From IMG/VR virus record IMGVR_UViG_2541047892_000001: a stretch of 35,657 nucleotides of DNA; one strand, 5' to 3'. Shown here one piece after another: positions 1 through 35,657 of the stretch (positions are counted from its first letter, which is position 1; each line of letters opens with the position of its first letter). Made by a program: the position numbers and the translations under genes. Under the pieces are notes generated by a model that saw only the letters and a program-made list of their open reading frames with translations, made no database searches and was not told where the DNA came from. This DNA is from a virus. Its lineage: Duplodnaviria > Heunggongvirae > Uroviricota > Caudoviricetes.

Positions 1-95
1 TTTTCTTCTGAAATGTACCCCAGGCTGGCAAAGGCTTATCCGACCAATAAATTACCGGATTTACGGGGCGAATTTATCCGTGGCTGGGATGACGG
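1..95. repeat. Inverted repeat arm (95 bp, perfect) paired with 1324..1418; truncated by window edge
   Basis: Reverse complement of 1..95 is identical to 1324..1418; first mismatch is at nt 96/1323. Confidence 0.85.
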
Positions 96-384: not shown

Positions 385-390
385 TTATAC

Positions 391-4089: not shown

Positions 4090-4965
4090 TTAAATTACGA
4101 AAACCTTGACGATAAGTTCTCCGTCTTTAGAGACTCTCTTCCCCTCAAGATCAGATTTCAGCCCCTCAGAATTAGTAATAAGCTGGTTCGGATCGTAGAT
4201 GACACACCAGAGATTTTTGCAATCAGAGTGCCGACGATAATGCTCTATATCGATAATAAGTTCATCGCCGATTTTCTTTGCATGAGAACGATCACGAACA
4301 ATTTTGGTTTCCAGTACTAATTTATGCGCAGGTAACAAAAAATCCATTCGAGTACTTGAACCAGCGTAACTTGGAGTAAACTCTTCTGGGCGGATGTCCT
4401 GAACCCATGGTCTGAGCAATGCATGGAGAAGGTCTTGCACGTCATATTCATTGCTAAAAGATAATGACTGGCTTCCTTTTCGCCTATGAGTAAGTGGATG
4501 CATTGCTCGCTGTAAGCCTTTGACCAGCCTTTCCAGTAAGTTCTCAACTTTTTCTGGCATTACTGGCTGTTGATAAGTAATTATGGTCTCTGGGTAATCC
4601 ATATTGTGTGACGGGATGTGGCCTTCAGGCAACACTCGACCAAAACGATAATATCTAAGTCCATTCTCTTGTAACACAGCTTCAATTCTGTCTCGTTTTT
4701 CCTTCCATTCTGCATATTCGGGAGTACCTTCTTTTGGAGGTAAATCCATAAACTCCTCAATTACTCCGCCCAGAACTGCCAGACTATCTGTATCTGGATC
4801 TTGCCCTGCAAGAAATAACCAGTCTTTCCATTTTGTACTATGAGATCCTGCCGGAGGGTTTCCTGGTGCTCCCGAAGTAAGAAATAACGTATCTAAAGCT
4901 GCATGAGAGCCTGAGTTAGCAATGACATCGCCAACTACTTTACATAAGGATCTTGATAACCGCAT
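4090..4965 (-). CDS. Accessory (moron) protein with predicted C-terminal PD-(D/E)xK nuclease fold; candidate defence gene
   Basis: 291 aa ORF in an AT-rich island between two conserved baseplate genes; C-terminal NEYDVQDLL...RMDFLLPAHKLVLETKIV fits the E...D...ExK pattern; GGGGA ribosome-binding site 5-9 nt upstream of ATG. Confidence 0.6.
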   Translation of the reverse strand: MRLSRSLCKVVGDVIANSGSHAALDTLFLTSGAPGNPPAGSHSTKWKDWLFLAGQDPDTDSLAVLGGVIEEFMDLPPKEGTPEYAEWKEKRDRIEAVLQENGLRYYRFGRVLPEGHIPSHNMDYPETIITYQQPVMPEKVENLLERLVKGLQRAMHPLTHRRKGSQSLSFSNEYDVQDLLHALLRPWVQDIRPEEFTPSYAGSSTRMDFLLPAHKLVLETKIVRDRSHAKKIGDELIIDIEHYRRHSDCKNLWCVIYDPNQLITNSEGLKSDLEGKRVSKDGELIVKVFVI

Positions 4966-11672: not shown

Positions 11673-13099
11673 CAGTTGCCCCCTTTCAGGGTTAACAGGT
11701 ATTCCGAGGTGATCTCAGTCTCAAACGTCAGTCGCTCCAGCGGCGGTGGTGGCGTATATTTGTAGCTCAGCAACAGGTGCCCGGCGGCCAGCTCCGTTTC
11801 CGGATTGCGGGCCGGATCAAACCAGCAACGGAAGCCCAGTACCGCGCCATCACCAGTCATTTTGCGACCGTAGGCGTTGACCGACTCCGTCAGTGCATCA
11901 ATCAGCGCCTGAGTAATCGGCATGTCGATGTACTGCTGGCTGAAGTAACGAATGGACTCATTGATCACATCACCGGTGCGGCGAACGTTCTCAAAGTTAC
12001 GCATATGGGTGACCGTTGGCCATGCTGCCGTCCGGTTACCCCACAGACGAAGGCCGCTGCCGTAACTGCTGAATACCGTGGTGATCCCCTGTTCGTTAAG
12101 CAGGTTCACCTCGCTCTGCGGATCGTCAATCATTGCCGACAGCTGGCGCTCCACGCCGGTGATCCCCAGAATTTCCTGATTTGAGGATGACCACCAGTAC
12201 CCTTTGTCCAGGTCGACTTTGGCACGCAGGCCCGCCGCACGCTGGCTCAGTGGCTCCAGACGTTCCGTGTTCGTCACCGGGTCATATACCTTCACATGCG
12301 GGTAGCACAGGCGGACACGGTCAGAGCTGGTATTAAAGTTAATGGTGCCTTCCGGGCCTCGTCCCGCCAGAGCCTGCGCAAAAGTGGTACCAACCGGCGC
12401 ATCAATATAGGTTACTGCTCCCAGTTTCTCAGCCATGGCGATAAGCTCAACCGAGACGCTGTTCTGGGTGCAGAATACCGGAGCAATCAGGATTTTGGCG
12501 AAGTAGCCAAACAGGTTAAAACTGTCGTTAAGCAGCTTCATGCCGGTACGGTTGCCTGCAGCGTTAACGGTACCGATGATATCAGCCGGGGTGACTTTGG
12601 TCGGATCAGCATAGTTATAGCTGGCCTTCACCGTTGCATCTGCAGCAATGCTTTTACCCAGGTTAGTAATCACCCCGGTCTGTGCATCAAGCGAGTAGTC
12701 CTGACCTTCAACATAAGGCTGACCGTCGCTGTCCGGTTTCAGTACCAGCTGCGCGACCACCGGATTAGCCAGCCGGGCTCTGCCTGTCGCCTTGTCGAAC
12801 GACACATTCTCACTGACCACAGCGGTTTTATGCACAGACGGATCGAGTACGTTAATGACCAGAACGGTGCCTGCACCATGGTCATAAATCGCATCCAGCG
12901 CCTGTGGAATGGTAAAGCCGGTGAACTGGCTGCCAAATGCCGCAGCGTCTTTCTCAGACAGGCACTGTACCAGCGTATTGACATCCCCCATTGGTGCGGT
13001 ACCAATCAGGCCAATAACGGCAGATTTCACCGTTTTAACCGGGCGGGCACCGTTTTCCACTTCAATGGTTTCCGGACCATGCAGATAGTTAGCTGACAT
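11672..13099 (-). CDS. Tail sheath protein (P2 FI / Mu L-like)
   Basis: 475 aa; typical sheath length and sequence; followed by the tube gene. Confidence 0.9.
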   Translation of the reverse strand: MSANYLHGPETIEVENGARPVKTVKSAVIGLIGTAPMGDVNTLVQCLSEKDAAAFGSQFTGFTIPQALDAIYDHGAGTVLVINVLDPSVHKTAVVSENVSFDKATGRARLANPVVAQLVLKPDSDGQPYVEGQDYSLDAQTGVITNLGKSIAADATVKASYNYADPTKVTPADIIGTVNAAGNRTGMKLLNDSFNLFGYFAKILIAPVFCTQNSVSVELIAMAEKLGAVTYIDAPVGTTFAQALAGRGPEGTINFNTSSDRVRLCYPHVKVYDPVTNTERLEPLSQRAAGLRAKVDLDKGYWWSSSNQEILGITGVERQLSAMIDDPQSEVNLLNEQGITTVFSSYGSGLRLWGNRTAAWPTVTHMRNFENVRRTGDVINESIRYFSQQYIDMPITQALIDALTESVNAYGRKMTGDGAVLGFRCWFDPARNPETELAAGHLLLSYKYTPPPPLERLTFETEITSEYLLTLKGGN

Positions 13100-23075: not shown

Positions 23076-23793
23076 AACTGCTGCCTCCCCATGTGAGATA
23101 TCGCGGTGCCAGTTCGCGCAGGATGCGCTGCGGATAATGGCGGTTCTCCCGCCAGCTGGCCGCATTGCGTCCGGCATTCACCGTGGCGACATGTCCGAAC
23201 CAGCGGGTGCTGTCCAGACCTTTCTGTGATGCAAGCCGCCTGTCCCGTTGTACCCAGCCCAGACCACCGTTATAGCCTGACAGTGTCATGGCCATACGCT
23301 CGCAGTCGTTGGCGGCGCTGACGCGCTGCCACAGCCAGCGGTCATAGCTGACCAGCGCCCGGATGGCCCATGCCGGATTAAACGGCTCACGGCTGTTAAG
23401 TCCCGGCATCAGCTGACTTATCCAGTCGGCAGTGGCAGGCATGAACTGCGCCAGTCCCTGAGCACCAGCCGGCGAGACCGCATCAGGTCGCCAGCCGCTT
23501 TCCTGATGCAGTTGCGCGGCGAAATCTGCCACCGGCGCAGACAGTCCCCATTCAAGCCGGGCATTACGGATCACATCATCGCGATACTGCAGCGCAGCCT
23601 GCGGAGGCTGCGCTGCGCGGGCCTGACTGAAGAAGCCACCACACCAGAGCAGCCAGACAATCACCAGGTTGCCAGCAAGCTGCCACCAGAAGCTGTATTT
23701 ATCGTTACGTGGTTCGCCGTGTCTGATGGCGGTTACGCCCAGACCAAAGGCGAACAGAATAATGAGGGTGATTTGAGGCCAGTTCATGGTCAC
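23059..23793 (-). CDS. Endolysin, lytic transglycosylase (SLT domain) with hydrophobic N-terminal segments
   Basis: 244 aa; SLT catalytic region QLHQESGWRPDAVSPAGAQGLAQFMPATADW; two hydrophobic stretches in the first 60 aa; start overlaps the holin stop (ATGA). Confidence 0.82.
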   Translation of the reverse strand: MTMNWPQITLIILFAFGLGVTAIRHGEPRNDKYSFWWQLAGNLVIVWLLWCGGFFSQARAAQPPQAALQYRDDVIRNARLEWGLSAPVADFAAQLHQESGWRPDAVSPAGAQGLAQFMPATADWISQLMPGLNSREPFNPAWAIRALVSYDRWLWQRVSAANDCERMAMTLSGYNGGLGWVQRDRRLASQKGLDSTRWFGHVATVNAGRNAASWRENRHYPQRILRELAPRYLTWGGSSCVASG

Positions 23794-24140
23794 AGTCCTG
23801 TTGCCACAGCCAGACAGACCGCTGCAACAATCAGTGCACGGCGGATTAACGCAGCAGAAAATACAAGGTGAAGGCCGGTCTGCACAGGGAAACGCCCTTC
23901 AGCCATCAGCCTGTCTTCATGTTTCAGGTACTGACCGGGACGGGCTTTGGGGAAGAGCGAACGGTCAAGCCAGTAACCCAGCACTGCTGCCAGCGTGATG
24001 AGTGCCAGCTTGTAGATCACAACAGGCAACTGCTGTGGCGAGACCAGAGCGATGGTGCCCAGCAACAGCACTGAGGTCAGCAGCCAGCCGCTGAGGCGAG
24101 GTTTTTTAACAGGGGGAATGAATTTTTTCAGGCTTTTCAT
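23790..24140 (-). CDS. Putative holin (three predicted TM segments)
   Basis: Three hydrophobic helices; AAGGAG 6 nt upstream of the ATG at 24140 (alternative ATG at 24170); first gene of the lysis cassette. Confidence 0.55.
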   Translation of the reverse strand: MKSLKKFIPPVKKPRLSGWLLTSVLLLGTIALVSPQQLPVVIYKLALITLAAVLGYWLDRSLFPKARPGQYLKHEDRLMAEGRFPVQTGLHLVFSAALIRRALIVAAVCLAVATGL

Positions 24141-24203
24141 GTGTGTCTCCTTGTTTGGTGGAGACAGCATCACAAATGTGGCGGGATACGGATTTTAAAG
24201 CGC

Positions 24204-24243
24204 GTTATAAGTGTTCGCAGAGGGAAGCGACCAGAATGGTCGC
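24204..24243 (-). promoter_or_regulatory. Candidate activator-dependent late promoter for the lysis operon
   Basis: Minus-strand TATAAC (24209..24204) lies 17 nt downstream of a perfect dyad GCGACC-n5-GGTCGC (24227..24243) occupying the -35 position, about 65 nt upstream of the holin start. Confidence 0.4.
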
Positions 24244-24270
24244 ACACAAAACATAGGGGAGGCAAGCACA

Positions 24271-24594
24271 ATGACTGAACCGAAACAGTCTGGTATTAAA
24301 AAAGGGTTCCTCTTTGGGAGCAGAATCGGAGAGCAGAATAAAACTTACACGCTAAGCTTGGATGCATGTTGTCCAACCGAAGCGATTATAGAGCTGAAAA
24401 ACGTTCTGGTTGCACTTGAAGAGAGAAGAAGTCATTTCGCCAGCGGAGAAAACAACGTCATGCTAATTGGCGATGTGGCGGCGACATCACGATATAAAAC
24501 CGCACCTAATCCTGCGATTCAGTTATCCTTCGACCAACGAATACTGGAAGCGGAATCAGCAGTTCCCAGAACGGTTCGTCCTCACCAGTCTTAA
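24271..24594 (+). CDS. Hypothetical small protein (107 aa), divergent from the lysis operon
   Basis: ATG at 24271 preceded by GGGGAGG with 8-nt spacing; 3' end overlaps the convergent 191-aa gene by 89 nt, so one of the two may be miscalled. Confidence 0.3.
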   Translation: MTEPKQSGIKKGFLFGSRIGEQNKTYTLSLDACCPTEAIIELKNVLVALEERRSHFASGENNVMLIGDVAATSRYKTAPNPAIQLSFDQRILEAESAVPRTVRPHQS

Positions 24595-25081
24595 CTGGGG
24601 CTGCTTCACCCGACCAGTAAAGCCAAGCACGGTGATACAGTTCCAGCACCGGGCAATCACTGTTCAATAACCTCATATCTCCGCGATGCACCTGCTCATT
24701 TGTGATGACTTCATATATCGGTGCCGTTCTTATTTCGTCTTCGCCTCTCTCATCAGCCAGTAATTCCCTGAACTTCCTGACTTCACTCAGATGCTGACAG
24801 GCAAACAGTGACTGATAGCGGGAAGGTTTATCAGGAAAATGGCTACGGCGAACTAACTCAAACACCAGACCGACCAGCAGACTTCTGCTGATTCCACTGT
24901 CATCTTCCATTTTAGGGCCGGGGTTATAGAGATAGTTATACCCGTGACTCGAAAGGCCATTGGGATACATCTGATGAAGAAAAGCGGCCAGTTCTGGCAT
25001 TTCAGGCTCGTATTTTCCGGTAATTACATGACAAGGCGAAGGCAGACGACTAGCGGAATCAAGTGTGTAATACGTTCCCAT
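24506..25081 (-). CDS. Hypothetical accessory protein (191 aa), no recognisable family
   Basis: ORF in the accessory region between lysis genes and repressor; separated from the upstream cassette by a 409-nt non-coding gap. Confidence 0.5.
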   Translation of the reverse strand: MGTYYTLDSASRLPSPCHVITGKYEPEMPELAAFLHQMYPNGLSSHGYNYLYNPGPKMEDDSGISRSLLVGLVFELVRRSHFPDKPSRYQSLFACQHLSEVRKFRELLADERGEDEIRTAPIYEVITNEQVHRGDMRLLNSDCPVLELYHRAWLYWSGEAAPVKTGEDEPFWELLIPLPVFVGRRITESQD

Positions 25082-25196
25082 TCAGAAAACAATCCTTATC
25101 GAACAAACACTGCACGTAGGTAATGCATCCAGTAAATCGCGTTAATAGAAATCATGTATCTCAAAACTTCACTCTGAACTCTGACAGTGAAAGAAC

Positions 25197-25228
25197 GACC
25201 AGCCCGGTACCCGAACTCCGGGCTGGTC
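25197..25228 (-). terminator. Perfect 11-bp stem / 10-nt loop hairpin; possible terminator of the repressor-linked cassette
   Basis: GACCAGCCCGG-tacccgaact-CCGGGCTGGTC; on the minus strand it is followed by GUUCUUUCA, a weak U-tract. Confidence 0.35.
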
Positions 25229-25490
25229 ATCGCCCCACAGGAATGCACTGTGAGCCGACCGAGGTTCAGTCAGTCTCGCGAGACCAGACTAGCCTGCCAT
25301 ATTTTTTATAATTATAAAAGGGTTACAGATTATGAAAATGCAGACATTCCCCATCGCTCCATGGATTGGTTGTAAACGCCGCCATGCCAGACATATTCTG
25401 GCCGATGTTTCCTAGCACGCACGAATATGAGGCAACTGACGAGAATAAATGATGCGTCAGAATGAACCGTCGACACCGTGATTTCAGGTT

Positions 25491-26102
25491 TCAAAAATCT
25501 GGAGAAGGTATATCTATCTGACCGACGTTTCGTAACCACATCTCTTGCTTTGTTTCTTTATTGGTTCGGGCGATATCATTAGCATTGTATCTGCATGTTT
25601 TAACCGCAACCTCACGAACTCGTGCTATAGGAGTATTTGTGTAGAATTTAAGATCTTCCTCTACCGCTCGTATGGCGATAAGCCCTCCACTCTGAAAACC
25701 GCTGGTTACTTTTAAAAGATCAACTCCTTGGTTATAAACGGCATTACATACGTTAGGGAACTCATCTTCTACAGTTTTGGGGATCATCAGCATATCAGGA
25801 AGACCCTGTAACACGTTATCTTCCTTTGGCCTCCATGCCCTTCCCAAAAAAGCTGTTATAGGTTGTGGTGTAGAAAGAAATGCCAATTCTATATAAAACA
25901 AACCACTGTAGTGATCGCGTAACGAATAGACTAGTAAATGATCTTTTCCAGTTTTACTTGCATTGCTAAGTTTTATATCAAATGGTTTTTTCTGGTACTT
26001 AAGCAATCCATCAACTCCCGCATAATAATGCTTTGAAACAGCAACAGAAAGTTGATGTACTTGGTTCGGATAATCTGTTCTATATCGTTTAATTAGCCCC
26101 AT
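25491..26102 (-). CDS. Hypothetical accessory protein (203 aa), third gene of the repressor-linked cassette
   Basis: AT-rich (about 36-40% GC by eye); GAGG ribosome-binding site 6 nt upstream of ATG; 20 nt downstream of the 328-aa gene. Confidence 0.6.
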   Translation of the reverse strand: MGLIKRYRTDYPNQVHQLSVAVSKHYYAGVDGLLKYQKKPFDIKLSNASKTGKDHLLVYSLRDHYSGLFYIELAFLSTPQPITAFLGRAWRPKEDNVLQGLPDMLMIPKTVEDEFPNVCNAVYNQGVDLLKVTSGFQSGGLIAIRAVEEDLKFYTNTPIARVREVAVKTCRYNANDIARTNKETKQEMWLRNVGQIDIPSPDF

Positions 26103-26122
26103 AATAGCCTCGCAGTTATTTT

Positions 26123-27109
26123 CTATTTCAAAATATAACGATATTTACTATCTGGAGTGTTTTGTTGGTCAAGTAATAGAGCTCTACATGGGGCGGTCAA
26201 AACACGGGCATAACGACCATCGGGGTTTATGTTGATGTAACAAGTTTTCCCTTTAACACCATAAGATTCAGGTATTATTGCCTGTGTAGACACCGTGAAT
26301 TTAAGGGTATGCCAGCCCGATTTTTGCTTGTAGCTTGAAACCGAATGGAAATCATCTGAGTACTTATTTAACCCTGGAAACATGCTGCGTAATGCTGGGA
26401 TGGAATCTTCTATTATTTTGTCGTTGGTTTTAATGTTAAAAACGCTGGTTTCAGTAGATGCTACTGCTTTAGCATTTCCCCATTTACCAGCGAACACAAT
26501 CATTCCCACGAAAAATATTGCGACAAGAACTAACGCTCCCCCCAACACTACTACATGAGGCTTCCGGCTTCTGGTTGGTACAGTCGCGACTGATTTTGCC
26601 CCGCTGTCCGATGGAGGTGATAGAGTTTTACTCTCATCACGAATATTCAGCAGATCATCAAAATAACCAAACACAGCCTGCAACTGCTCTTTGTCCAGGC
26701 CTTTAAGATGGGTTGTACCGAAATGCTTCAGACAGTATCTGTCACGGTCAAGACGATACCTAGGGTCAGTAAGCACCATTATTTTGCTGACCAGAAGATT
26801 ACAGTCCTTCATATTCTGGATCTGTTGTGCATATCTCTGGAGGATCTCAACCGCACCATGATAATCAGCCGCAGTCATTTCATTAACTGTTTTGGTATTA
26901 AGTTTCGTGTGGATCGTCATCCATAGTTCGCGCTTACTTTCCCCCAGATCAACCAATTCATCCATCAATCTGTGTAAATCGCGTTTTTGCAGCAACGAAA
27001 TTGGTTGCTGGGCAGAGGGAAGTATGTCAGCAGAATAGTTATGAATGGTAACATCACCGCTGACAACGTTACCCACATCTCCGTTAACTGTTTGCTTCTC
27101 TTTACTCAT
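26123..27109 (-). CDS. Hypothetical bitopic membrane protein (328 aa): N-terminal Gly-rich motif, about 190-aa cytoplasmic domain, one TM, about 110-aa C-terminal domain
   Basis: TM helix HVVVLGGALVLVAIFFVGMIVFAG; start codon overlaps the repressor stop (ATGA); AT-rich. Confidence 0.65.
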   Translation of the reverse strand: MSKEKQTVNGDVGNVVSGDVTIHNYSADILPSAQQPISLLQKRDLHRLMDELVDLGESKRELWMTIHTKLNTKTVNEMTAADYHGAVEILQRYAQQIQNMKDCNLLVSKIMVLTDPRYRLDRDRYCLKHFGTTHLKGLDKEQLQAVFGYFDDLLNIRDESKTLSPPSDSGAKSVATVPTRSRKPHVVVLGGALVLVAIFFVGMIVFAGKWGNAKAVASTETSVFNIKTNDKIIEDSIPALRSMFPGLNKYSDDFHSVSSYKQKSGWHTLKFTVSTQAIIPESYGVKGKTCYININPDGRYARVLTAPCRALLLDQQNTPDSKYRYILK

Positions 27110-27567
27110 TTTCTCTTTGTATTTTTGTTCATTATTCCACCTGTTCCTATGGTTACGTTACCTTTGATAACATTCCCCAGAACATCTCCATGAATAACCT
27201 GTTCCGCCCGTTCTCTGGAGGAGCCAGTCGTCAATGCCGACAAAACTGAACCTTTGACTTGTAACGGTGCTTGCCGGTAGTGCTGAAGTAACTCCATTTC
27301 ATCACGTGATAAAGTTATACCTGATGATTCCCCAGTAAGAATGAACTGTACGTTGGCCCCAATTCTTGCAAAGGCTGCAAGTAACTCACCTCCGGGAACT
27401 GCAACCCCTCGTTCATATTTCCCCCACATTTCTCTTGAAACGCCACAAAGGGCTGCTACTTCAGCCTGCTTGAGTGATAACCGCGAACGCTCAGCTTTGA
27501 ACCGCGACGCGCAAAGAGAATCAAAATTCACATAAACCTCATTGACAATGAGAACAATGGTTCTCAT
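27106..27567 (-). CDS. XRE-family HTH transcriptional repressor (putative prophage repressor)
   Basis: HTH_XRE signature LKQAEVAALCGVSREMWGKYERG; divergent from the early operon; alternative GTG start at 27531 with a GAGG site would leave the operator and early promoter outside the coding region. Confidence 0.8.
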   Translation of the reverse strand: MRTIVLIVNEVYVNFDSLCASRFKAERSRLSLKQAEVAALCGVSREMWGKYERGVAVPGGELLAAFARIGANVQFILTGESSGITLSRDEMELLQHYRQAPLQVKGSVLSALTTGSSRERAEQVIHGDVLGNVIKGNVTIGTGGIMNKNTKRK

Positions 27568-27570
27568 AAT
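27542..27570 (+). promoter_or_regulatory. Early promoter: -35 TTGACA, 17-bp spacer, -10 CATAAT, with an operator-like inverted repeat in the spacer
   Basis: TTGACA at 27542..27547 and CATAAT at 27565..27570; spacer contains ATGAGAAC-aatg-GTTCTCAT (27548..27567); 48 nt upstream of the first early gene. Confidence 0.55.
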
Positions 27571-27617
27571 CTATCACATATAAAACAAACATCATTGCAT
27601 CAACAAAGGAGACAACA

Positions 27618-27806
27618 ATGACTTCCGAACAAGTTAAAACTCTCTTCCGTCAGCGTGGTATCACGTTTACCCGCTGGGCCGAAGAACACGGCTACAGCCG
27701 CAATGAGGTCTATCGTGTTCTCAATGGACAGACCAAAGCTCGTTACGGCAAAGCCCATGAAATTGCCGTAAAGCTGGGATTAAAACCCACGTCAAATGCG
27801 GCATAA
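27618..27806 (+). CDS. Small Ner/Cro-like HTH DNA-binding protein (first early gene)
   Basis: 62 aa; AAGGAG 6 nt upstream; layout resembles Ner/Nlp-type regulators (weak, from memory). Confidence 0.65.
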   Translation: MTSEQVKTLFRQRGITFTRWAEEHGYSRNEVYRVLNGQTKARYGKAHEIAVKLGLKPTSNAA

Positions 27807-27858
27807 ATTTTCCATATATGCAACAGGTTATCACATATTGCAAAAATGGAAATGTGAC

Positions 27859-28167
27859 ATGAGTAAAGTAAATATCTCCAGTTCCGGGACCCGCATCCTA
27901 CGTGTACTCAAAGCTCTACGCGGTCACTCTCTGAACGGTGTTTCTAACGGTGAACTGGCATCAGCCCTAGATGAGTCCCCGGCGAACATCAATCGAGCAC
28001 TCAATACCCTTATCGAAGAGGGACTAGCCCTGAAACTGGAAAACGGGCGTTTCGCACCAGGCATCCAGTTGCTGCAGATCGCCATGGCCCACAGTAACGA
28101 GATGGCACGTGCACAGGATCGCATTAACGAAATCAACCAACGTGTTATTTCAGGTAGTCGTTTGTAA
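27859..28167 (+). CDS. Winged-helix DNA-binding protein
   Basis: ILRVLKALRGH...GVSNGELASALDESPANINRALNTLIEEGL is HTH-like; start uncertain (ATG 27859, or 27796 overlapping the previous gene). Confidence 0.55.
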   Translation: MSKVNISSSGTRILRVLKALRGHSLNGVSNGELASALDESPANINRALNTLIEEGLALKLENGRFAPGIQLLQIAMAHSNEMARAQDRINEINQRVISGSRL

Positions 28168-28177
28168 GGAGTAATCA

Positions 28178-29089
28178 ATGGGACGCACCAAATCACCGGT
28201 TAGCACTGAACTGAACGTCGAGGTACCGCTGTCGGATGATCTCAATGTCAGTCTAAACGCCATGACACAGCATCGCATGGAAATCATGCAACAGTTCGGC
28301 GATGGTCTGCCCTATGAGCGCGATCGTGTTGTCCATGAGGCACGCTTTTATATGGCACAGAGCGCTGAGGCCATGCTGGAGGCAGGTAAGCGGCTGATAA
28401 TCCTTAAGGAAAATGAACCACACGGGGAGTTTATAAAGATTCTTGAAAGTGAGTTGGGGCTGGCATACCGGACATCTGTGAGAATGATGCAAGCATCGAC
28501 AAAATACTTATCCCCGGCGCTGAAACCAAATGTGCCAACGTTGGCACATTTGGGAAAAGCCAAACTTTTCGAATTAATGACAGAAGACGACGAAGAGCTT
28601 GCCGAACTGGCCGACGGCGGCACAGTTGCCGGCATGACGCTTGACGATGTTGATCGCATGTCAGTACGTGAATTGCGTCAGGCCCTGCGTGAAGCGCGCG
28701 AAACCAACGCAGCACAACAGCGTGTTCTCGCCGATAAAAATGAAAAAATAGACTCACTCTCCACCAGACTGGAGAAGAAATCCCGTATTCAGCCACCTGA
28801 GCCTGATGAAGAGGTGAAGAAACTGCGGGCGGAAGTGACCGCGTTAGCGGTTGAGGCGGAATCTGCCATCGCCGTTCGACTGTCCAGCGCTTTTGAGACA
28901 CTGTGCGCATATTGTGCTGAAAACATGATTGATACCCCCAGAGACTTCATGGCAGGCCTGGTCTGTCAACTGGAAAGCACAGCGCGTAGCCTGCGCTCCA
29001 CATTTGACCTGCCGGACGAGCCAACAGGCGATGTCGCGCCTTCATGGCTGACTGAGCCGACGCCACAGATTAACGGGCTGGAGGCATAA
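28178..29089 (+). CDS. Hypothetical early protein (303 aa) with central coiled coil
   Basis: AAGGAG 6 nt upstream of ATG; lies between the regulators and the transposase; no family recognised. Confidence 0.6.
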   Translation: MGRTKSPVSTELNVEVPLSDDLNVSLNAMTQHRMEIMQQFGDGLPYERDRVVHEARFYMAQSAEAMLEAGKRLIILKENEPHGEFIKILESELGLAYRTSVRMMQASTKYLSPALKPNVPTLAHLGKAKLFELMTEDDEELAELADGGTVAGMTLDDVDRMSVRELRQALREARETNAAQQRVLADKNEKIDSLSTRLEKKSRIQPPEPDEEVKKLRAEVTALAVEAESAIAVRLSSAFETLCAYCAENMIDTPRDFMAGLVCQLESTARSLRSTFDLPDEPTGDVAPSWLTEPTPQINGLEA

Positions 29090-29092
29090 CCA

Positions 29093-30862
29093 ATGAATGC
29101 TGCCCTGACTGAACGACTGGTTTATGTCGCCCGCGCGGCACGTGACGCGGGGCATGGTAAACGCGGTGCAATATACGACGCTGCCTGTGCTGAACTTGGC
29201 ATGTCCCGCGCCACTCTGCTGCGCAGGCTGAAGGAGGTATCTGTGACTGATAAACGCAAAAAACGCGCCGATGCCGGGCGCAGCGCCCTGACCCGCGACG
29301 AAGCCGCGCTGATATCTGCCACACTGCGTGAGGCCACCCGCAAGAACGGTAAGCGTCTCTATTCCATCGCAGATGCAGTGGAAACCCTGCGGGCTAACGG
29401 CTTTATCTCCGCAGGCAGAACAGATGAAACCACCGGTGAGTTTTTCCCGTTGTCCGAAGATGCCATCAGTCGTGCCTTGCGTAACTATGGCCTGCACCCG
29501 GAACAACTGGATGCCCCTGCGCCGCATACCGAAGTGGCCAGTCTGCATCCCAATCACGTCTGGCAGATTGATGCCTCGCTCTGCACGCTTTACTACCTGA
29601 GCAATGGACACAAAGGGCTGCAGGTGATGGACAGCGCGAAGTTCTACAAGAATAAACCCGCTAACCTTGCCCGTATCGCCAGTGACCGCGTGTGGAGTTA
29701 CGAGATTACCGACCATGCCAGCGGCTGGATTTACGTTGAGTATGTGACGGGTGCGGAATCCGGTGAGAACCTGTGTTCTGTGCTTATCAACGCCATGCAG
29801 GAGCGTGGCGGCGCAGACGTGCTGCACGGCGTGCCGAAAATACTCTATCTCGACCCCGGCTCGGCAAACACCGCGGGTATGACGAAAAACATGTGCCGCT
29901 CACTGGGCATCGACCTGATAGCGCACAAGCCGCATAACGCCCGCGCCACCGGACAGGTGGAAAAGGCGCGTGACATTATCGAACGCAAGCTGGAGCCGGG
30001 TCTGAAATTCCGGCCGGTTCACAGTCTGGAAGAACTCAACGCGCTGGCCGCGAAATGGCGTAGCCACTTTAACGCAACAGCTGTTCACAGCCGCCACGGT
30101 AAAACCCGCACGGATATCTGGCTGAAGATTACTGCTGAGCAGCTGAAAAAAGCGCCTTCCGTTGAGGTATGCCGTGAACTGGCTGTGGCGACACCAGAAC
30201 TCCGCAAAGTCACGCCAAAACTTCGTGTCTCGTTCCGGGGCACTGAATTTGACGTATCAACGGTACCGGGCGTACTGGTTGGTGAAAAACTGATGATTAC
30301 CCGTAACCCATGGCGCAGCGATGTGGCACAGGTGGTTCTGACCGGTGAGGACGGCCACGAGACGTTCTTCCTGGTCGAAGAGGTCAGAAAGAACGAGTTT
30401 GGCTTTGCTGAAGGCGCGGCGGTATTTGGCGAAAGTTACAAAGCCCTGCCGGAAACACCGGCACAGACGGCGGCAAAAGAAACCGAAGCGCTGGTCACCG
30501 GTACAGACAACGCCGCAGATGCAGCTGCCGCACGCAAGGCGAAGGCGCTGCCGTTCGGCGGGCGGCTTGACCCGTATAAACATATTGATGACGCCACACT
30601 TCCGGCCTGTATACCGAAGCGCGGTCAGGTCTCTGATGTACGCAGACCGCGCACTGAACAACGTCCCATGACTCATGTGGAGGCCGCGAAAGCCCTGCGC
30701 GATAAGTTCAGCGCCGACGGCCTTACCTGGACGCCGGAACATTACCGCCAGTTAACGGCACAGTACCCGGACGGCGTACCGGAAGCCGCACTGGATGAAG
30801 TAATGGCCACGCTGACCACGCCGGCCCGCAGCAGCGTTATCAGCATTGTTAACGGCAACTGA
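29093..30862 (+). CDS. DDE (rve/integrase-core type) transposase
   Basis: 589 aa; candidate catalytic residues in HVWQIDAS, LYLDPGSANT and a downstream Glu; GGAGG 8 nt upstream; followed by an AAA+ ATPase; no resemblance to the MuA N-terminus. Confidence 0.8.
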   Translation: MNAALTERLVYVARAARDAGHGKRGAIYDAACAELGMSRATLLRRLKEVSVTDKRKKRADAGRSALTRDEAALISATLREATRKNGKRLYSIADAVETLRANGFISAGRTDETTGEFFPLSEDAISRALRNYGLHPEQLDAPAPHTEVASLHPNHVWQIDASLCTLYYLSNGHKGLQVMDSAKFYKNKPANLARIASDRVWSYEITDHASGWIYVEYVTGAESGENLCSVLINAMQERGGADVLHGVPKILYLDPGSANTAGMTKNMCRSLGIDLIAHKPHNARATGQVEKARDIIERKLEPGLKFRPVHSLEELNALAAKWRSHFNATAVHSRHGKTRTDIWLKITAEQLKKAPSVEVCRELAVATPELRKVTPKLRVSFRGTEFDVSTVPGVLVGEKLMITRNPWRSDVAQVVLTGEDGHETFFLVEEVRKNEFGFAEGAAVFGESYKALPETPAQTAAKETEALVTGTDNAADAAAARKAKALPFGGRLDPYKHIDDATLPACIPKRGQVSDVRRPRTEQRPMTHVEAAKALRDKFSADGLTWTPEHYRQLTAQYPDGVPEAALDEVMATLTTPARSSVISIVNGN

Positions 30863-30872
30863 GGAGGGAAAC

Positions 30873-32039
30873 ATGCTGGTACTGAAGCAGCAACTGAAAG
30901 AGGCCCGTATTCCACAGGCGGTGGTGGCGAGAGCTGTCGATGTTTCTGAGGCCACGCTGGCCCAGATTGTGAATCATAACGCGTGGCCCCGCACCAGCCC
31001 CGGAGAAGTGCGCCGGCGTCTTGCGTCCTGGTTGGAAAGTCAGGGGATTGATACAGCGAAGAGTTTTGATGCTGTACAGGGCGCGGCCACTCCCCGTACA
31101 GCGGGTACCACAGATAAAACGAGCCTCAGTGAGGAAGAGAATATGTTACTCAAAAAACAGGTGTTATTCCCGGCAACCAAAAAAGCGTTTGGTCTTTTCC
31201 GTGACCCGTTCGCCGACGAAGCCATGCAGGGTTCTGATGATGTGTTCACCACCCCGGACATTCGCTACGTGCGTGAGGCGTTGTACCAGACAGCCCGTCA
31301 TGGTGGGTTTATGGCCGTCATCGGTGAGTCCGGTGCGGGTAAATCCACGCTGCGCCGCGACCTGACTGAACGTATCAACCGCGAGAATGCGCCGGTAATT
31401 GTTATCGAGCCATACATCATCGCTATGGAAGACAACGATGTGAAAGGGAAAACCCTGAAGGCAGCAGCTATTGCCGAAGCCATTATCAGTACCATCGCAC
31501 CACTGGAAAGCATCAGACGCAGTCAGGACGCCCGCTTTCGCCAGTTGCATCGCGTCCTGAAAGACAGCAGCCAGGCGGGGTTCAGCCACGTTCTGGTGAT
31601 TGAGGAGGCCCACAGTCTGCCCATTCCGACACTGAAACACCTCAAACGCTTTTTTGAGCTGGAGTCCGGTTTCAAAAAACTGCTGTCCATCGTGCTGATT
31701 GGCCAGCCGGAACTGGCGACAAAACTGTCTGAACGCAATATGGAAGTCCGTGAAGTCGTTCAGCGCTGTGAGGTGGTCGAACTTCTGCCTCTGGACAATA
31801 ACCTTGAAGAGTTTCTGACGTTCAAACTGCAACGGGCAGGTAAACAACTGACGGACATTATGGACGCCAGTGCAGTGGATGCCATACGTGCCCGCCTGAG
31901 CAATCCGGGAAGTCATCGTAAAAATATGGTCAGCCTGTTGTATCCGCTGGCCGTCAGTAACCTGGTGATAGCCGCCATGAATCTGGCCGCTGAAATCGGG
32001 GTTCCACAGGTCAACGCTGACGTTGTCAAAGGGGTTTAA
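30873..32039 (+). CDS. Transposition AAA+ ATPase (MuB / TniB / ExeA-like)
   Basis: Walker A VIGESGAGKST and Walker B VLVIEEAH; N-terminal HTH-like segment; GAGGAGGG ribosome-binding site; start 10 nt after the transposase stop. Confidence 0.85.
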   Translation: MLVLKQQLKEARIPQAVVARAVDVSEATLAQIVNHNAWPRTSPGEVRRRLASWLESQGIDTAKSFDAVQGAATPRTAGTTDKTSLSEEENMLLKKQVLFPATKKAFGLFRDPFADEAMQGSDDVFTTPDIRYVREALYQTARHGGFMAVIGESGAGKSTLRRDLTERINRENAPVIVIEPYIIAMEDNDVKGKTLKAAAIAEAIISTIAPLESIRRSQDARFRQLHRVLKDSSQAGFSHVLVIEEAHSLPIPTLKHLKRFFELESGFKKLLSIVLIGQPELATKLSERNMEVREVVQRCEVVELLPLDNNLEEFLTFKLQRAGKQLTDIMDASAVDAIRARLSNPGSHRKNMVSLLYPLAVSNLVIAAMNLAAEIGVPQVNADVVKGV

Positions 32040-32041
32040 TA

Positions 32042-32311
32042 ATGAAATCCACCACAGGTATCAACCAGCAAATCAGCAAAGTGCAGTCAGCCATTATGGC
32101 GCTTAAGGCGACGAACACGGATGTACAAAGCATCACCATCAGGGGTAACAAACCTGTCATCCGCGTTTCCCGGAGTGCGCATTGCATGCGCATGCTTGAG
32201 CAGGGAAAGGCCTGTTATCTGTATACCGGACATGACCACAGGGGATATTTCCGTCAGGGCGTTTTCGAACTGCACGGCTGTCGCGTCGTGTGGCCGGAAT
32301 CTTTGTGGTAA
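32042..32311 (+). CDS. Hypothetical early protein (89 aa)
   Basis: Starts 2 nt after the ATPase stop; no family recognised. Confidence 0.45.
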   Translation: MKSTTGINQQISKVQSAIMALKATNTDVQSITIRGNKPVIRVSRSAHCMRMLEQGKACYLYTGHDHRGYFRQGVFELHGCRVVWPESLW

Positions 32312-32338
32312 TCAGCACAACTGGAGAAATCATAAGAT

Positions 32339-32869
32339 ATGGCAAAAAGTACAAAAGGGGCAAAACGTATCAAGTCCGCAGCGGCACTCTGGGTACCGGG
32401 GACACGCGAAGAGGTCATTGAGGGAATCAGACTGCTCGGTGACGCACAACGTGAACTGGTCAGGGCTGAAACAGAAATGAATGACGCCATTGGCGATATC
32501 ACCGCACGTTATGCCCCGCTCACCGAGAGCCTAAAAAAACGCATGGCCGAACTGCAGTCCGGTATTCAGACATGGTGTGAGGCACACCGTGATGAACTGA
32601 CCGGCAACGGGAAGGTGAAGTTCGCTAACCTCACCACCGGCGAGGTGCAGTGGCGAAACCGTCCGCCATCAGTCAGTATCCGTGGAGCGGATAATGTTAT
32701 TGAACTACTGAGACGTCTGGGGCTTGAGCGCTTTATTCGTGTAAAAGAGGAAATAAATAAAGATGCCATTCTGAATGAAAAAGAGGCCGTGAAAAATATT
32801 CCCGGTATTACCATAAAAAGTGATATTGAGGATTTTTCAATAATTCCTTTTGAGCAGGATGTGCAGTAA
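32339..32869 (+). CDS. gam: Host-nuclease inhibitor Gam (Mu Gam family)
   Basis: 176 aa; KRIKSAAA...GDxQRE...ETEMNDAI...VSIRG...ERFIR...EDFSIIPFEQ closely parallels Mu Gam as recalled from memory. Confidence 0.88.
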   Translation: MAKSTKGAKRIKSAAALWVPGTREEVIEGIRLLGDAQRELVRAETEMNDAIGDITARYAPLTESLKKRMAELQSGIQTWCEAHRDELTGNGKVKFANLTTGEVQWRNRPPSVSIRGADNVIELLRRLGLERFIRVKEEINKDAILNEKEAVKNIPGITIKSDIEDFSIIPFEQDVQ

Positions 32870-32966
32870 ACACACCACGTTAATTATTTAATAAAAACAT
32901 TTTCTTTTTTATTCCGGCGTCAGCGCCGTGGGCTTCTGCACGCCGGAAACAGAGGAGAATTAAATT

Positions 32967-33161
32967 ATGATATTTAAATGTATTCAGTGCGAGAGGGATA
33001 TAACAGCCCTGCGTTTTCACAGCGCCATCGCCGTGATGTCCGGTAAGTACCACGTACCTGCAGTACGTGTCACCCTGGTCTGTCCGTACTGCAGCCAGCA
33101 TTTTTCGGCGGACGTGCCCGTCATGGAATTCTTCCGCCCTGACAGGGAGGACGCGCAATGA
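32967..33161 (+). CDS. Small zinc-ribbon-like protein (CxxC...CxxC)
   Basis: 64 aa with Cys pairs C5/C8 and C39/C42; GAGGAG 9 nt upstream. Confidence 0.5.
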   Translation: MIFKCIQCERDITALRFHSAIAVMSGKYHVPAVRVTLVCPYCSQHFSADVPVMEFFRPDREDAQ

Positions 33162-33430
33162 TTACCCCACAGGACGCAGAAAAACGGACCCGCGAAATTG
33201 TCGCGGAATATATCCGTGAATGTGGTTGTAAAACCCCCAACCATATCCGGCTGGTATTAACCAAATTAATCAGCATGGCCGCGCAGGCTATTGTGGCGAC
33301 CAACGGAAAGGAGGCTGCCCTGCAGGTACTGGTGAACACACTCACCCACACGGCAGAGCATGAGGTGCCGTACCGGATGGAAACTACTGCAGAAGGCGGC
33401 CTGCACATCACCGTCGACCGGAAGCACTGA
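33158..33430 (+). CDS. Hypothetical early protein (90 aa)
   Basis: ATGA overlap with the previous gene. Confidence 0.45.
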   Translation: MITPQDAEKRTREIVAEYIRECGCKTPNHIRLVLTKLISMAAQAIVATNGKEAALQVLVNTLTHTAEHEVPYRMETTAEGGLHITVDRKH

Positions 33431-33439
33431 GGGCGCGAC

Positions 33440-33745
33440 ATGACACGAAACACCGAACTCACCCGCACCGCCCTCTACCGTCTGGCTCTGCAGCGTTTCG
33501 GGCCGGATGCACAGGCCCTGAAACTGACAGAAGAGGCCGCCGAACTGGCGGCCAGTGCCGCCCGCAACCTGAACGGACAGGGCAGCGAAAGTGACCTCGC
33601 GGCAGAGCTGGCAGACGTGGAAATCATGACAGAGCAGCTGCGCCTTCAGGGGATGGACCGGCTGATTGACTTCCACAAACAGAAAAAACTGGAACGCCTT
33701 GCCGCACGGCTGGGCGTCATGTACACCGGAGATACTGAACAATGA
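33440..33745 (+). CDS. Small MazG-like nucleotide pyrophosphohydrolase (tentative)
   Basis: 101 aa; TEEAAELAAS and AAELADVEIMTEQL resemble the MazG/HisE EExxE...E..D motifs. Confidence 0.4.
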   Translation: MTRNTELTRTALYRLALQRFGPDAQALKLTEEAAELAASAARNLNGQGSESDLAAELADVEIMTEQLRLQGMDRLIDFHKQKKLERLAARLGVMYTGDTEQ

Positions 33746-34422
33746 CAGACCAGGATAAACACATTGAGAAACTGAAAAAGTTGCTGGCGCTGGCCGCATC
33801 CGGCAACCCTCACGAGGCCGCTCTGGCACTGCGCCGTGCCCGTAAACTGATGGATGTTCACGGCATCACACATTCCGACATCGCCATGAGTGATATTGAT
33901 GAAACCATCAGTCACTACTGGCCGACAGGCAGCCTCCGTCCACCGCGCTACATGCTGGGCCTGATGAACATCATCCGCGAGGCATTTGGTGTTAACTCCA
34001 TCATTCACCCCGGCACATATCCGGGTGTGGGGTTCTACGGCAACCGGGAACGGGCTGCACTGGCTGCGTACACCTGGGAAGTGCTGGCCCGCCAGCTGAA
34101 AAAGGCGCGTCAGCAATATATCAGCGCACAGAACAAAAGAATAAAAACTGCCACCCGTACCAGCCGTGGTGACCAGTTTGCTGAAGGCTGGGTGCTGGCC
34201 GTTATCAGTGAAATACAGTCCTTCGCCCTGACCGATGACGAACGTGAACTGATGCAGCAGTGGCTGGAACATAAATACCCGCAAACGCAAACCACCAGGG
34301 CGCGTAAAGGAAGAAGCCGCAATGGCGGCGCCTCGCGCTATGCGGGGTTTCGTGAAGGGCAGAACGTCAGACTGCACCGCCCGGTCAGTGGGCAGGAACA
34401 ACAGAAACTGGAGGCCAGATGA
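33742..34422 (+). CDS. Early protein with N-terminal DUF2786-like domain
   Basis: 226 aa; IEKLKKLLALAASGNPHEAALALRRARKLMDVHGIT; overlaps the previous gene by 4 nt. Confidence 0.55.
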   Translation: MTDQDKHIEKLKKLLALAASGNPHEAALALRRARKLMDVHGITHSDIAMSDIDETISHYWPTGSLRPPRYMLGLMNIIREAFGVNSIIHPGTYPGVGFYGNRERAALAAYTWEVLARQLKKARQQYISAQNKRIKTATRTSRGDQFAEGWVLAVISEIQSFALTDDERELMQQWLEHKYPQTQTTRARKGRSRNGGASRYAGFREGQNVRLHRPVSGQEQQKLEAR

Positions 34423-34649
34423 TTACGCTATCAGGTAACAGCCGGAAATTAAAAGCCTGCCGAATATCTGCCAGATACCTTTTTGCCCGCGCCTTTTTTA
34501 AGAACGTCAGGCCGGGGATCACAATTGGTGTTATTGCCGGACGCGAACAGGTTGAAAAATACATGTCAGGTGCATGGTGGAATAACGACCCTGTCATTGC
34601 TGCCCGTAATATTCATATCAGTTGGGGGGATATTCAGAATGACTGCTGA
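34419..34649 (+). CDS. Hypothetical small early protein (76 aa)
   Basis: ATGA coupling with the upstream gene; no family recognised. Confidence 0.35.
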   Translation: MITLSGNSRKLKACRISARYLFARAFFKNVRPGITIGVIAGREQVEKYMSGAWWNNDPVIAARNIHISWGDIQNDC

Positions 34650-34854
34650 ATCTGTTGTATGTGCCATGTTCTGGTATTGTTTTGTCGGTTGGTGTACTGC
34701 TGAACTGCACCGCCGTTCAGGGTTTTATTCACGTTACAGTGGTGCCGGCTACTGGATTAGCTGGTCGGTGATGTTCCTGTGCTGGCCTGTGGCGCTTCCT
34801 TTATATGTCGATTATATCGGTGGCGCAGGTAAAAGGAGCAACGATGATGACTAA
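34639..34854 (+). CDS. Small membrane protein (two predicted TM helices)
   Basis: ATG at 34639 preceded by a G-run; VVCAMFWYCFVGW and WISWSVMFLCWPVALPLYV hydrophobic segments; the longer ORF-track start would overlap the previous gene. Confidence 0.4.
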   Translation: MTAESVVCAMFWYCFVGWCTAELHRRSGFYSRYSGAGYWISWSVMFLCWPVALPLYVDYIGGAGKRSNDDD

Positions 34855-35296
34855 ACAACGTCTTATCCAGCTCATTCATATTGCCCGTAATGAACTGGGT
34901 ATGGATGAAGACACCTACCGCCAGATGTTACAGGGGCTGACCGGTAAAGCCTCAACCAAAGGAATGGATACCACACAACTAAACTGCGTGCTGGAATCCA
35001 TGAAAAGGAAAGGCTTTCGCGTTAAGCCTGCCGGAAAAGCCAGCTCCGGTTTACCGCTGGATAACCATCCGCAGTCCAGGAAAATCCGTGCGCTATGGAT
35101 TGAAATGGCTGCTGCCGGCATTGTTCGTGACCGTTCAGAAAATGCATTAGCGCGGTGGATCAAGCGGGAAACGGGCATCAGCGCCCTGCGCTGGCTCAAT
35201 ACTGAACAGGCAAGCAGTGTTATTGAGAAACTGAAGAAGTGGCAGCGCAGAGCTGCGGGAGTAAAACATGAGCGACCTGAATCAGTTTCGAAGTAA
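34844..35296 (+). CDS. GemA / Mu gp16-like protein
   Basis: LIQLIHIARNELGMDEDTYRQMLQGLTGKASTKGM matches the GemA-type N-terminus; AAGGAG 5 nt upstream of ATG 34844. Confidence 0.7.
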   Translation: MMTKQRLIQLIHIARNELGMDEDTYRQMLQGLTGKASTKGMDTTQLNCVLESMKRKGFRVKPAGKASSGLPLDNHPQSRKIRALWIEMAAAGIVRDRSENALARWIKRETGISALRWLNTEQASSVIEKLKKWQRRAAGVKHERPESVSK

Positions 35297-35657
35297 AGGG
35301 CCGGAACTCCTGGTGGAACTGGCACAGCATACCTCTGAGACCGTTCGCGAGATTATTGATATTGAGCCCGCAATTGCCGACCAGATTGGTCAGGCTGTCG
35401 CGAACCGAATGATGCAGGTCTGGGGCGGGCAAAACGTTTATTTCCCAATGGGCATGGTATGGAAGGTCAGTCAGCGCGACCGGGAAATCTTCAGGGAGTT
35501 TAACGGACGCAACCACCACGAACTGGCCCGCAAATTTGGTGTTTCGCTTCAGTGGGTCTACAGCGTGGTTAAGCGGGTAAGAAAAGAAGAACTGGATCGG
35601 ATGCAGGGCAAGCTATTTGCTGATGAACCCGATGCAGATACGGAGAAAAAAGAGTAA
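35268..35657 (+). CDS. mor: Mor/C-family transcriptional activator of late or middle genes
   Basis: 129 aa; GGQNVYFPMG...FNGRNHHELARKFGVSLQWVYSVVKR is the Mor/C HTH region; GGGAG ribosome-binding site; stop codon is the last 3 nt of the window. Confidence 0.85.
   Translation: MSDLNQFRSKGPELLVELAQHTSETVREIIDIEPAIADQIGQAVANRMMQVWGGQNVYFPMGMVWKVSQRDREIFREFNGRNHHELARKFGVSLQWVYSVVKRVRKEELDRMQGKLFADEPDADTEKKE

Follow-up and report, generated by a model that had tools for sequence, protein, structure and literature searches.

The early arm of a transposable prophage of Escherichia coli and its relation to BcepMu, B3, Tn552, and Mu

The transposable phage BcepMu was reportedly described by Summer et al. 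in 2004. According to PMC2771037, its transposase is unrelated to MuA and belongs distantly to the Tn552-IS1604 family, and its genes form two divergent clusters with lysogeny control where they meet, the genome having a terminal CA. PMC5977238 and PMC8705779 describe B3-like phages as having an inverted early operon and different transposition proteins, and the latter also describes the "B3/Tn552 family transposase," the B3-like two-arm organization, and a 6-base pair (bp) target duplication for B3. Background on BcepMu and B3 is cited here via these three sources and PMC2628397. Gam, GemA, and Mor/C are marker genes common to transposable phages in general (PMC8705779), and Gam, GemA, and Mor beside TnpA and TnpB of the B3/Tn552 type are the usual gene set of the class (PMC8705779, PMC2771037). 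Here, we analyze a stretch of 35,657 nucleotides (nt) from IMG/VR virus record IMGVR_UViG_2541047892_000001, which is called the window below, and within it the early arm at positions 27618-35657.

We identify this region, with a high degree of confidence, as the entire early arm of an intact BcepMu/B3-type transposable prophage of Escherichia coli. Its genes follow one another throughout in the order of BcepMu gp01-gp17 and B3 ORF1-ORF18. The element is an already catalogued, well-populated member of the BcepMu/B3 class and not a novel mosaic; judged from its sequence, its arrangement is inherited from the BcepMu/B3 lineage and was not recently assembled from Mu parts.

Layout of the early arm and its counterparts in other phages

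Genes were called from a six-frame open reading frame (ORF) listing, from Pfam, NCBIfam, and PHROG profile scans, and from the RefSeq annotation of matching genomes. The ORF listing contains a single, tightly packed string of plus-strand ORFs at 27618-35657, forming a rightward operon, and long minus-strand ORFs from 27567 down to 24500 and from about 24173 down to position 1. The minus strand carries the repressor gene (27106-27567), the first of a leftward string that includes two cargo genes, and the late genes, which extend from the holin (23790-24140) to the tail fibers at the window start. By RefSeq annotation, the late arm runs in the order lysis, head, and P2-like tail. In both the ORF listing and the RefSeq annotation, none of the early or late ORFs of the window is interrupted. 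Because the window ends exactly with the Mor stop codon and its first base already falls within the tail-fiber region, it contains neither prophage end.

Early arm, control region, and holin (window coordinates, strand, and identification, with expectation values (E) and identities; HTH, helix-turn-helix; NTP, nucleoside triphosphate):
23790-24140, minus strand: holin, first gene of the leftward late arm (Pfam Holin_2-3, E 1.5e-40; 51% identical to BcepMu holin gp21)
27106-27567, minus strand: lysogeny repressor, 153 amino acids, XRE-type HTH (Pfam HTH_31/HTH_3; 39% identical to BcepMu gp17)
27541-27574, plus strand: candidate early promoter (Pe) and candidate operator (consensus scan, inverted repeat)
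27618-27806, plus strand: first early gene, 62-amino acid HTH protein of the BcepMu_gp16 family (NCBIfam TIGR04111, E 4e-27; 45% identical to BcepMu gp16)
27859-28167, plus strand: IclR/MarR-like winged-helix regulator, 102 amino acids (Pfam HTH_IclR; phrog_1368, transcriptional regulator; 34% identical to BcepMu gp12)
28178-29089, plus strand: DUF3102 protein, 303 amino acids (Pfam DUF3102; 41% identical to BcepMu gp10)
29093-30862, plus strand: TnpA, DDE transposase, 589 amino acids (Pfam rve, E 1.1e-8, its sole Pfam domain)
30873-32039, plus strand: TnpB, ExeA-like AAA+ ATPase, 388 amino acids (Pfam AAA_22, E 3.9e-20; RefSeq name, ExeA family)
32042-32311, plus strand: small conserved early protein, 89 amino acids (phrog_2041, E 3e-36; RefSeq name, HI_1482 family)
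32339-32869, plus strand: Gam, 176 amino acids, DNA-end-binding host-nuclease inhibitor family (Pfam Phage_Mu_Gam, E 5.6e-41)
32967-33745, plus strand: three small early ORFs, 64, 90, and 101 amino acids (ORF list; in RefSeq, the last is an NTP pyrophosphohydrolase-family protein)
33742-34422, plus strand: DUF2786/DUF7168 protein, 226 amino acids (Pfam, E 3.9e-26 and 4.4e-11; phrog_421)
34419-34854, plus strand: two small ORFs, 76 and 71 amino acids (ORF list; RefSeq coding sequences)
34847-35296, plus strand: GemA-family protein, 149 amino acids (Pfam GemA, E 6e-41)
35268-35657, plus strand: Mor/C-family transcription activator, 129 amino acids, last early gene (Pfam Mor, E 1.3e-43)

The candidate Pe (TTGACA-17-CATAAT at 27542-27570) matches 11 of the 12 consensus positions in a consensus scan, and a 15-nt inverted repeat, the candidate operator, overlaps it at 27541-27574. 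The 62-residue HTH gene that follows occupies the position of Mu Ner. The three small ORFs in 32967-33745 gave no match in the Pfam scan. A tblastn search over the whole prophage found a single Mor/C-family gene.

The window proteins were compared by BLASTP with the translated annotated early genes of Mu (NC_000929) and BcepMu (NC_005882). TnpA is 68.5% identical over 581 amino acids to BcepMu gp09, and TnpB is 59% identical over its full length to gp08. For GemA, identity is 43% with BcepMu gp02 and 36% with Mu GemA; for Mor, it is 54% with BcepMu gp01, 31% with Mu Mor, and 37% with Mu C. Gam, with 62.7% identity to its Mu counterpart, has no equivalent in BcepMu. The preliminary description had named the early genes of this region, let the early and late arms diverge from a central repressor region, and pointed to the BcepMu-like group; the ORF listing and Pfam matches agree with the first two points, the named genes all being on the plus strand, and the full early-arm synteny together with protein identities of 41-69% over the arm agrees with the third.

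BcepMu (genus Bcepmuvirus) and phiE255 likewise carry, in order, Mor, GemA, further early genes, TnpB, TnpA, DUF3102, the winged HTH regulator, the gp16-like HTH protein, and the repressor. The divergent two-arm layout, the cassette of holin, SLT-endolysin, and spanin, and the combination of a Mu-like head with a P2-like tail are also shared with BcepMu. The host of BcepMu is Burkholderia, whereas that of the present element is E. coli, and protein identity is in the range of 34-69%. BcepMu has the DUF3164 protein gp05 where Gam is found here; genes for HU or SSB-like proteins are absent here, and the cargo between the repressor and the holin is unlike that of BcepMu. A Gin-type invertase and an invertible tail-fiber segment are present here and, according to PMC2771037, absent from BcepMu.

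B3 and the B3-like phages (Beetrevirus; H72 and JBD25) share the transposase family at 50-57% identity and a syntenic series of DUF3102, TnpA, TnpB, GemA, and Mor. The DUF3102 gene lies directly upstream of the transposase gene in the window, in BcepMu (gp10), and in B3 (ORF13). The inversion of the early operon relative to Mu and the 6-bp duplication are further points of likeness, as described in PMC8705779 and PMC5977238. The B3-like phages are Pseudomonas siphoviruses, whereas the late arm in the window encodes a contractile P2-like tail.

Three deposited phage genomes belong to the same lineage: Escherichia phage PhiKM (PQ738613), Klebsiella phage KP12 (OM835952), and Escherichia phage Phi06_2974 B (KM389306). 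PhiKM, which is placed in Bcepmuvirus by NCBI taxonomy, covers 90% of the arm at 93.5% nucleotide identity. PhiKM and KP12 differ from the window in the immunity and cargo region, where both carry a Dam methylase and other genes, and KP12 has DUF3164 in place of Gam.

Like Mu, the element is a transposable temperate phage that probably inserts near-randomly. The two share TG...CA ends, proteins of the Gam, GemA, and Mor families, head genes of the Mu kind (terminase, portal, and F/G), and an invertible tail-fiber segment of the Gin type. The MuA domains HTH_Tnp_Mu_1, HTH_Tnp_Mu_2, and DDE_2 and the MuB C-terminal domain are absent here; the duplication is 6 bp instead of 5 bp; the early arm is inverted; the arms diverge, whereas transcription in Mu is collinear from early to late genes; there is one Mor/C gene instead of two; and the repressor is central and not at the left end.

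Transposition proteins and prophage ends

TnpA is built of N-terminal helical DNA-binding domains, a DDE core, and a β-barrel domain around residues 368-432. D160, D254, and E290 are invariant in an alignment of 18 TnpA homologues. Among phages, identity is 97.6% with PhiKM, 93% with KP12, about 69% with phiE255 and BcepMu, and 50-57% with B3-like phages, including 56% over 589 amino acids with B3 TnpA (ORF12) by BLASTP. Homologues of this transposase family number more than 2,300 in Enterobacterales and Burkholderia. In BLASTP, TnpA did not match MuA at E ≤ 1 in the early-gene set, and the best E value of a direct pairwise comparison was 0.47. In the Pfam scan, MuA matches HTH_Tnp_Mu_1, HTH_Tnp_Mu_2, DDE_2, and Mu-transpos_C, and MuB matches Phage-MuB_C; none of these five domains was found in the window proteins.

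The tnpB gene starts 10 bp past the tnpA stop codon. TnpB contains the Walker A motif GESGAGKST and the Walker B motif VLVIEEAH. It has no BLASTP similarity to MuB, either in the early-gene set or pairwise, but both proteins match AAA_22 and the same region of phrog_296 ("DNA transposition protein"). By analogy, TnpB is the putative target-DNA activator and equivalent of MuB. The TnpB comparison with the Tn552 ATPase gave no similarity and is uninformative, because the copy used, from pN315, is fused to or truncated by a resolvase. A phmmer search of TnpA and TnpB against Protein Data Bank sequences gave marginal matches to retroviral integrases and P-loop proteins only.

The Tn552 transposase p480, also taken from pN315, could be aligned with TnpA. 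BLASTP detected the DDE core (23% identity over 144 amino acids, E 4e-5), and hhalign with the 18-homologue profile aligned TnpA residues 149-422 with p480 residues 155-409 over 243 columns (probability 92.9%, E 3.7e-7). The alignable stretch corresponds to the DDE core and the following β-barrel. As judged by these alignments, the relationship to Tn552 p480 is a distant one and not close membership. MuA, Tn552 p480, BcepMu gp09, and TnpA all match phrog_310, in which TnpA covers positions 129-687 and MuA covers positions 6-639; the later start of TnpA fits the absence of the enhancer-binding Iα domain of MuA. The similarity to BcepMu and B3 and the lack of alignment with MuA and MuB point to enzymes of the B3/BcepMu (Tn552-like) type that are remotely related to MuA and MuB. 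In the preliminary description, the transposase had been called rve-type and unlike the N-terminus of MuA, and the ATPase ExeA/MuB-like; the transposase is indeed not MuA-like, and the ATPase is ExeA-like and only distantly MuB-like.

The ends and target duplications were read not in the window but in E. coli genomes with a 99.8-100% identical early arm. In strain GABEEC10, whose arm is 100% identical, comparison with the empty aqpZ-ybjD site of MG1655 delimits a prophage of 37,546 bp. The termini are 5'-TGAT...ATCA-3' (TG...CA), and the GABEEC10 ends read 5'-TGATGCGCCGCGCGATAAATG... and ...CATTTATCTCAAGTCTAATCA-3'. In locus L001, the prophage ends lie at 3275-3320 and 40775-40820, and one of them is located 163 bp beyond Mor. 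The GABEEC10 prophage is flanked by a 6-bp duplication (ATTTGC at aqpZ/ybjD), which was confirmed against the empty site of MG1655. Three more independent insertions have the duplications AACAAA (ppiD/ybaV), TCAGGG (dinG/rhlE), and ACGGGA (inside pduO), each a perfect 6-bp repeat in which a seventh base pair no longer matches. The four duplications come from four unrelated loci.

The ends were also compared for TG...CA and subterminal sites (TGATGCGCC... and ...GTCTAATCA). The 9-bp core GMGATAWWT is located at positions 12 and 35 from both termini, i.e. with 23-bp spacing, in inverted orientation with mirror symmetry. BcepMu has the same core at the same offsets, as well as TG...CA ends and a Tn552-like transposase (PMC2771037). 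Elsewhere in the 37.5 kb, GMGATAWWT occurs twice, compared with about 2.3 occurrences expected by chance. These two internal matches, at prophage positions 10042 and 29604 (the latter at about window position 27878), were considered as an internal transposase-binding enhancer near the operator. The idea was dropped, since they have no extended likeness to the end sites and their number is that of chance.

Tn552, a 6.5-kb transposon of Staphylococcus aureus and not a phage, also has TG...CA ends, and its identity with the present element is about 23-25%, confined to TnpA residues 149-422. Rowland et al. (1995) reportedly found two directly repeated 23-bp transposase sites at each end of Tn552 and duplications of 6-7 bp. 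The paired end repeats 23 bp apart in the E. coli element, which are candidate binding sites, resemble these reported paired sites.

The early arm is found in 644 of 5426 complete E. coli genomes (~12%), nearly always in the chromosome and in up to three copies per genome; in several strains the identity is 100%. The preliminary description had named two results that would refute it, a transposase alignable with MuA over its full length and an incomplete prophage. TnpA could not be so aligned, and genomes carrying the identical arm have a complete prophage with both ends and 6-bp duplications, so that the basic identification stands.

Origin of the arrangement and proposed mechanism

The preliminary description had regarded the region as a mosaic in which Mu-type genes accompany a foreign transposase, and Gam, GemA, and Mor had been taken to be close to their Mu counterparts. 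Such a recent mosaic might have formed by entry of a BcepMu-type transposition module into a Mu-type phage, or of Mu Gam, GemA, and Mor into a BcepMu-like phage. Gam gives this explanation some ground, as it is close to Mu Gam (62.7%) and missing from BcepMu. The same does not apply to GemA (36%) and Mor (31%), both of which are nearer to BcepMu than to Mu, and even Gam is nearer to Gams of Pseudomonas phages than to that of Mu: after PhiKM (98.9%), the next-nearest phage Gams are from Pseudomonas phages at 67-68%. A megablast search of the whole arm against 50,697 phage records found no Mu DNA. Apart from Gam, collinearity with BcepMu and B3 extends over the early arm, the lysis cassette, and the late arm. 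The claim of a mosaic is not supported, the gene set being the normal one of the class.

The Gam slot is the sole swap site that was found in the early arm. In KP12, a DUF3164 protein of 203 amino acids, 44% identical to BcepMu gp05, is located exactly in this slot. BcepMu (gp05) and B3 have DUF3164 there, but the B3-like phage H72 has Gam in the same slot, and the D3112-like phages are split, some having Gam and others (Ab30 and LPB1) DUF3164. Gam and DUF3164 thus alternate in three phage lineages. The slot corresponds to 32339-32869 in the window and to 11723-12334, 2581-3204, and 2942-3460 in the comparison loci L014, L016, and L015, respectively. Among the 639 complete E. coli genomes with the TnpA gene, the Gam form is present in 621 and the DUF3164 form in 24; the mutual exclusivity of the two was checked among the matches listed. 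From this shared position, DUF3164 may be a functional analogue of Gam. That close relatives differ at the slot shows that module exchange does occur in the semi-essential early region, and this is a point in favor of the mosaic. In view of H72 and of the GemA and Mor identities, we nevertheless consider a recent mosaic very improbable. Gam had also been used to predict an enterobacterial host. The host is indeed E. coli, as the genome survey demonstrates, but the argument from Gam is unsound: with Pseudomonas Gams nearer than Mu Gam, this protein is uninformative on the point.

A defective remnant or domesticated element, whose early genes persist without movement or particles, is likewise very improbable. 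In its favor, copies in strains 503025 and TW10573 have IS2, IS100, and ISEc43 inside the tail region of the late arm, and in one copy a small early ORF is broken by a stop codon. Against it, the early and late ORFs of the window are intact, as are the two ends, which are flanked by perfect 6-bp duplications at each of four loci; up to three copies occur per genome, and near-identical sequences were deposited as phage genomes (PhiKM, KP12, and Phi06_2974 B).

Several points weigh against the proposed reading as an intact BcepMu/B3-type prophage. Neither end is in the window, both being known from other genomes with the same arm, and the copies bearing insertion sequences may be defective. Inducibility, replicative transposition, and host DNA on virion ends would be expected by analogy, and the candidate promoter, operator, and Mor targets are pattern matches or analogies. 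The suggested link between TnpA and MuA consists of a common PHROG and a common link to Tn552. In hhalign, the TnpA alignment, which is shallow (number of effective sequences, 1.7), gave a probability of 0.2% against MuA; because of this shallowness, a distant relationship among MuA, Tn552, and TnsB is still compatible with the result. The AlphaFold2 model of TnpA, built from a low-diversity alignment of 18 sequences, has a predicted local distance difference test score (pLDDT) of 59, and less than 50 in the catalytic core. Foldseek with this model matched TnsB and IstA (E ~1e-5, template modeling (TM) score ~0.12), and these fold matches carry little weight because the model is poor.

For the BcepMu/B3-type prophage, we propose a scheme of its transposition and gene control by homology with Mu, Tn552, and B3. 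When the repressor (27106-27567) is inactivated, the strong σ70-like candidate promoter within the inverted repeat at 27541-27574 would fire the rightward operon. TnpA, a DDE transposase of the B3/Tn552 family by its sequence (D160/D254/E290) that lacks the enhancer-binding N-terminal domain of MuA, probably binds the two GMGATAWWT sites observed 23 bp apart at each end. It would then synapse the ends, nick at the terminal CA, and join the ends to target DNA. Strand transfer would take place with a 6-bp stagger, to which the duplications attest. The target DNA would be supplied or activated by the AAA+ protein TnpB, as by MuB. Near-random integration and, in lytic growth, replicative transposition would be the outcome. 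Gam, from its family membership, is predicted to shield linear DNA ends from RecBCD. Mor would directly activate the leftward late arm, which encodes the lysis proteins, the Mu-like head, and the P2-like tail; a two-tier cascade via Mor would thus replace the Mor-then-C cascade of Mu.

The discovery value of the element is small: its class was described in 2004 (BcepMu and B3), and the element is already present in GenBank phage records and in the RefSeq annotation, where names like "BcepMu_gp16 family" are used. It does mean that, besides Mu, E. coli hosts another abundant transposable phage of this style whose insertions can hit genes, as in the copy that splits pduO. The signature of the element is unlike that of Mu (6-bp duplications, TGAT ends, and 23-bp-spaced repeats) and should be recognized by prophage finders and annotators. 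The element could also be developed into a second in vitro transposition system, with the advantage of a tractable host. Small, testable leads are the recurrent alternation of Gam with DUF3164 and the transposase-core cargo protein described below.

A transposase-core-like protein and other cargo genes

The region between the holin and the repressor (24200-27100), with a guanine-plus-cytosine (GC) content of ~0.42, is cargo that is variable between relatives, and its proteins gave no PADLOC match. One of its genes is related to the transposase.

25491-26102, minus strand: transposase-core-like protein, 203 amino acids (sequence alignment and hhalign to the TnpA core, AlphaFold model)

This gene, which is on the strand of the repressor and follows it as the second gene downstream, is probably cotranscribed with it. 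The protein has no match in Pfam, NCBIfam, PHROG, or PADLOC. It is 23% identical to residues 152-345 of the TnpA of its own phage (E 2e-10), and its family aligns with the TnpA family in hhalign with a probability of 95.2%. The residues at the positions of D160, D254, and E290 are all replaced, and the DDE triad is absent from all 30 aligned members of the family. The AlphaFold model is confident, with a pLDDT of 91.9, and matches the catalytic cores of TnsB (TM score 0.63-0.65), IstA, retroviral integrases, and MuA. The family comprises proteins of ~200-240 amino acids (50 matches). Its distant homologues have ParE or RhuM genes as neighbors and lie in small, unrelated islands instead of transposable prophages, and the gene itself occurs in 27 E. 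coli genomes only. Based on the alignments and the model, we assign it as a stand-alone, catalytically dead transposase-core fold of an unannotated family and as a rare moron. Interference with the assembly of a B3/BcepMu-type transpososome, either as a dominant-negative subunit that would restrain the transposase of its own prophage in the lysogen or by exclusion of superinfecting transposable phages, is a speculative and improbable function. A conserved two-gene module for this protein was considered and rejected, as the upstream neighbors in the window and in loci L012 and L013 are unrelated.

Directly beside the repressor, a gene at 26123-27109 on the minus strand, whose start overlaps the repressor stop codon, encodes a protein of 328 amino acids. 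Its N-terminal 130 residues have a similarity to Flk, a flagellar regulator, that is far below the cutoff of the NCBIfam model (E 1.6e-11), one transmembrane segment is predicted, and phrog_10002 matches over the full length. The protein is probably expressed in the lysogen. Also in the variable cargo region, a DUF2441 protein of 191 amino acids (24506-25081, minus strand) had no match to a defense system.

In the late arm, a moron of 291 amino acids resembling PD-(D/E)XK nucleases (4090-4965, minus strand; GC content 0.42) is located between the baseplate genes gpV and gpW. It matches the PADLOC model "Aga_Helical-REase" (E 1.8e-30). In strains 503025 and TW10573, it is this gene that is broken by IS2, IS100, and ISEc43. 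Window positions 1-1522 and the sequence beyond the window start (L001 3353-6049) hold the invertible tail-fiber segment, with repeated and inverted blocks of ~100-220 bp, and a Gin/Cin-type recombinase gene, which is located just inside the left prophage end and outside the window. Here, the window and GABEEC10 differ by ~470 bp.

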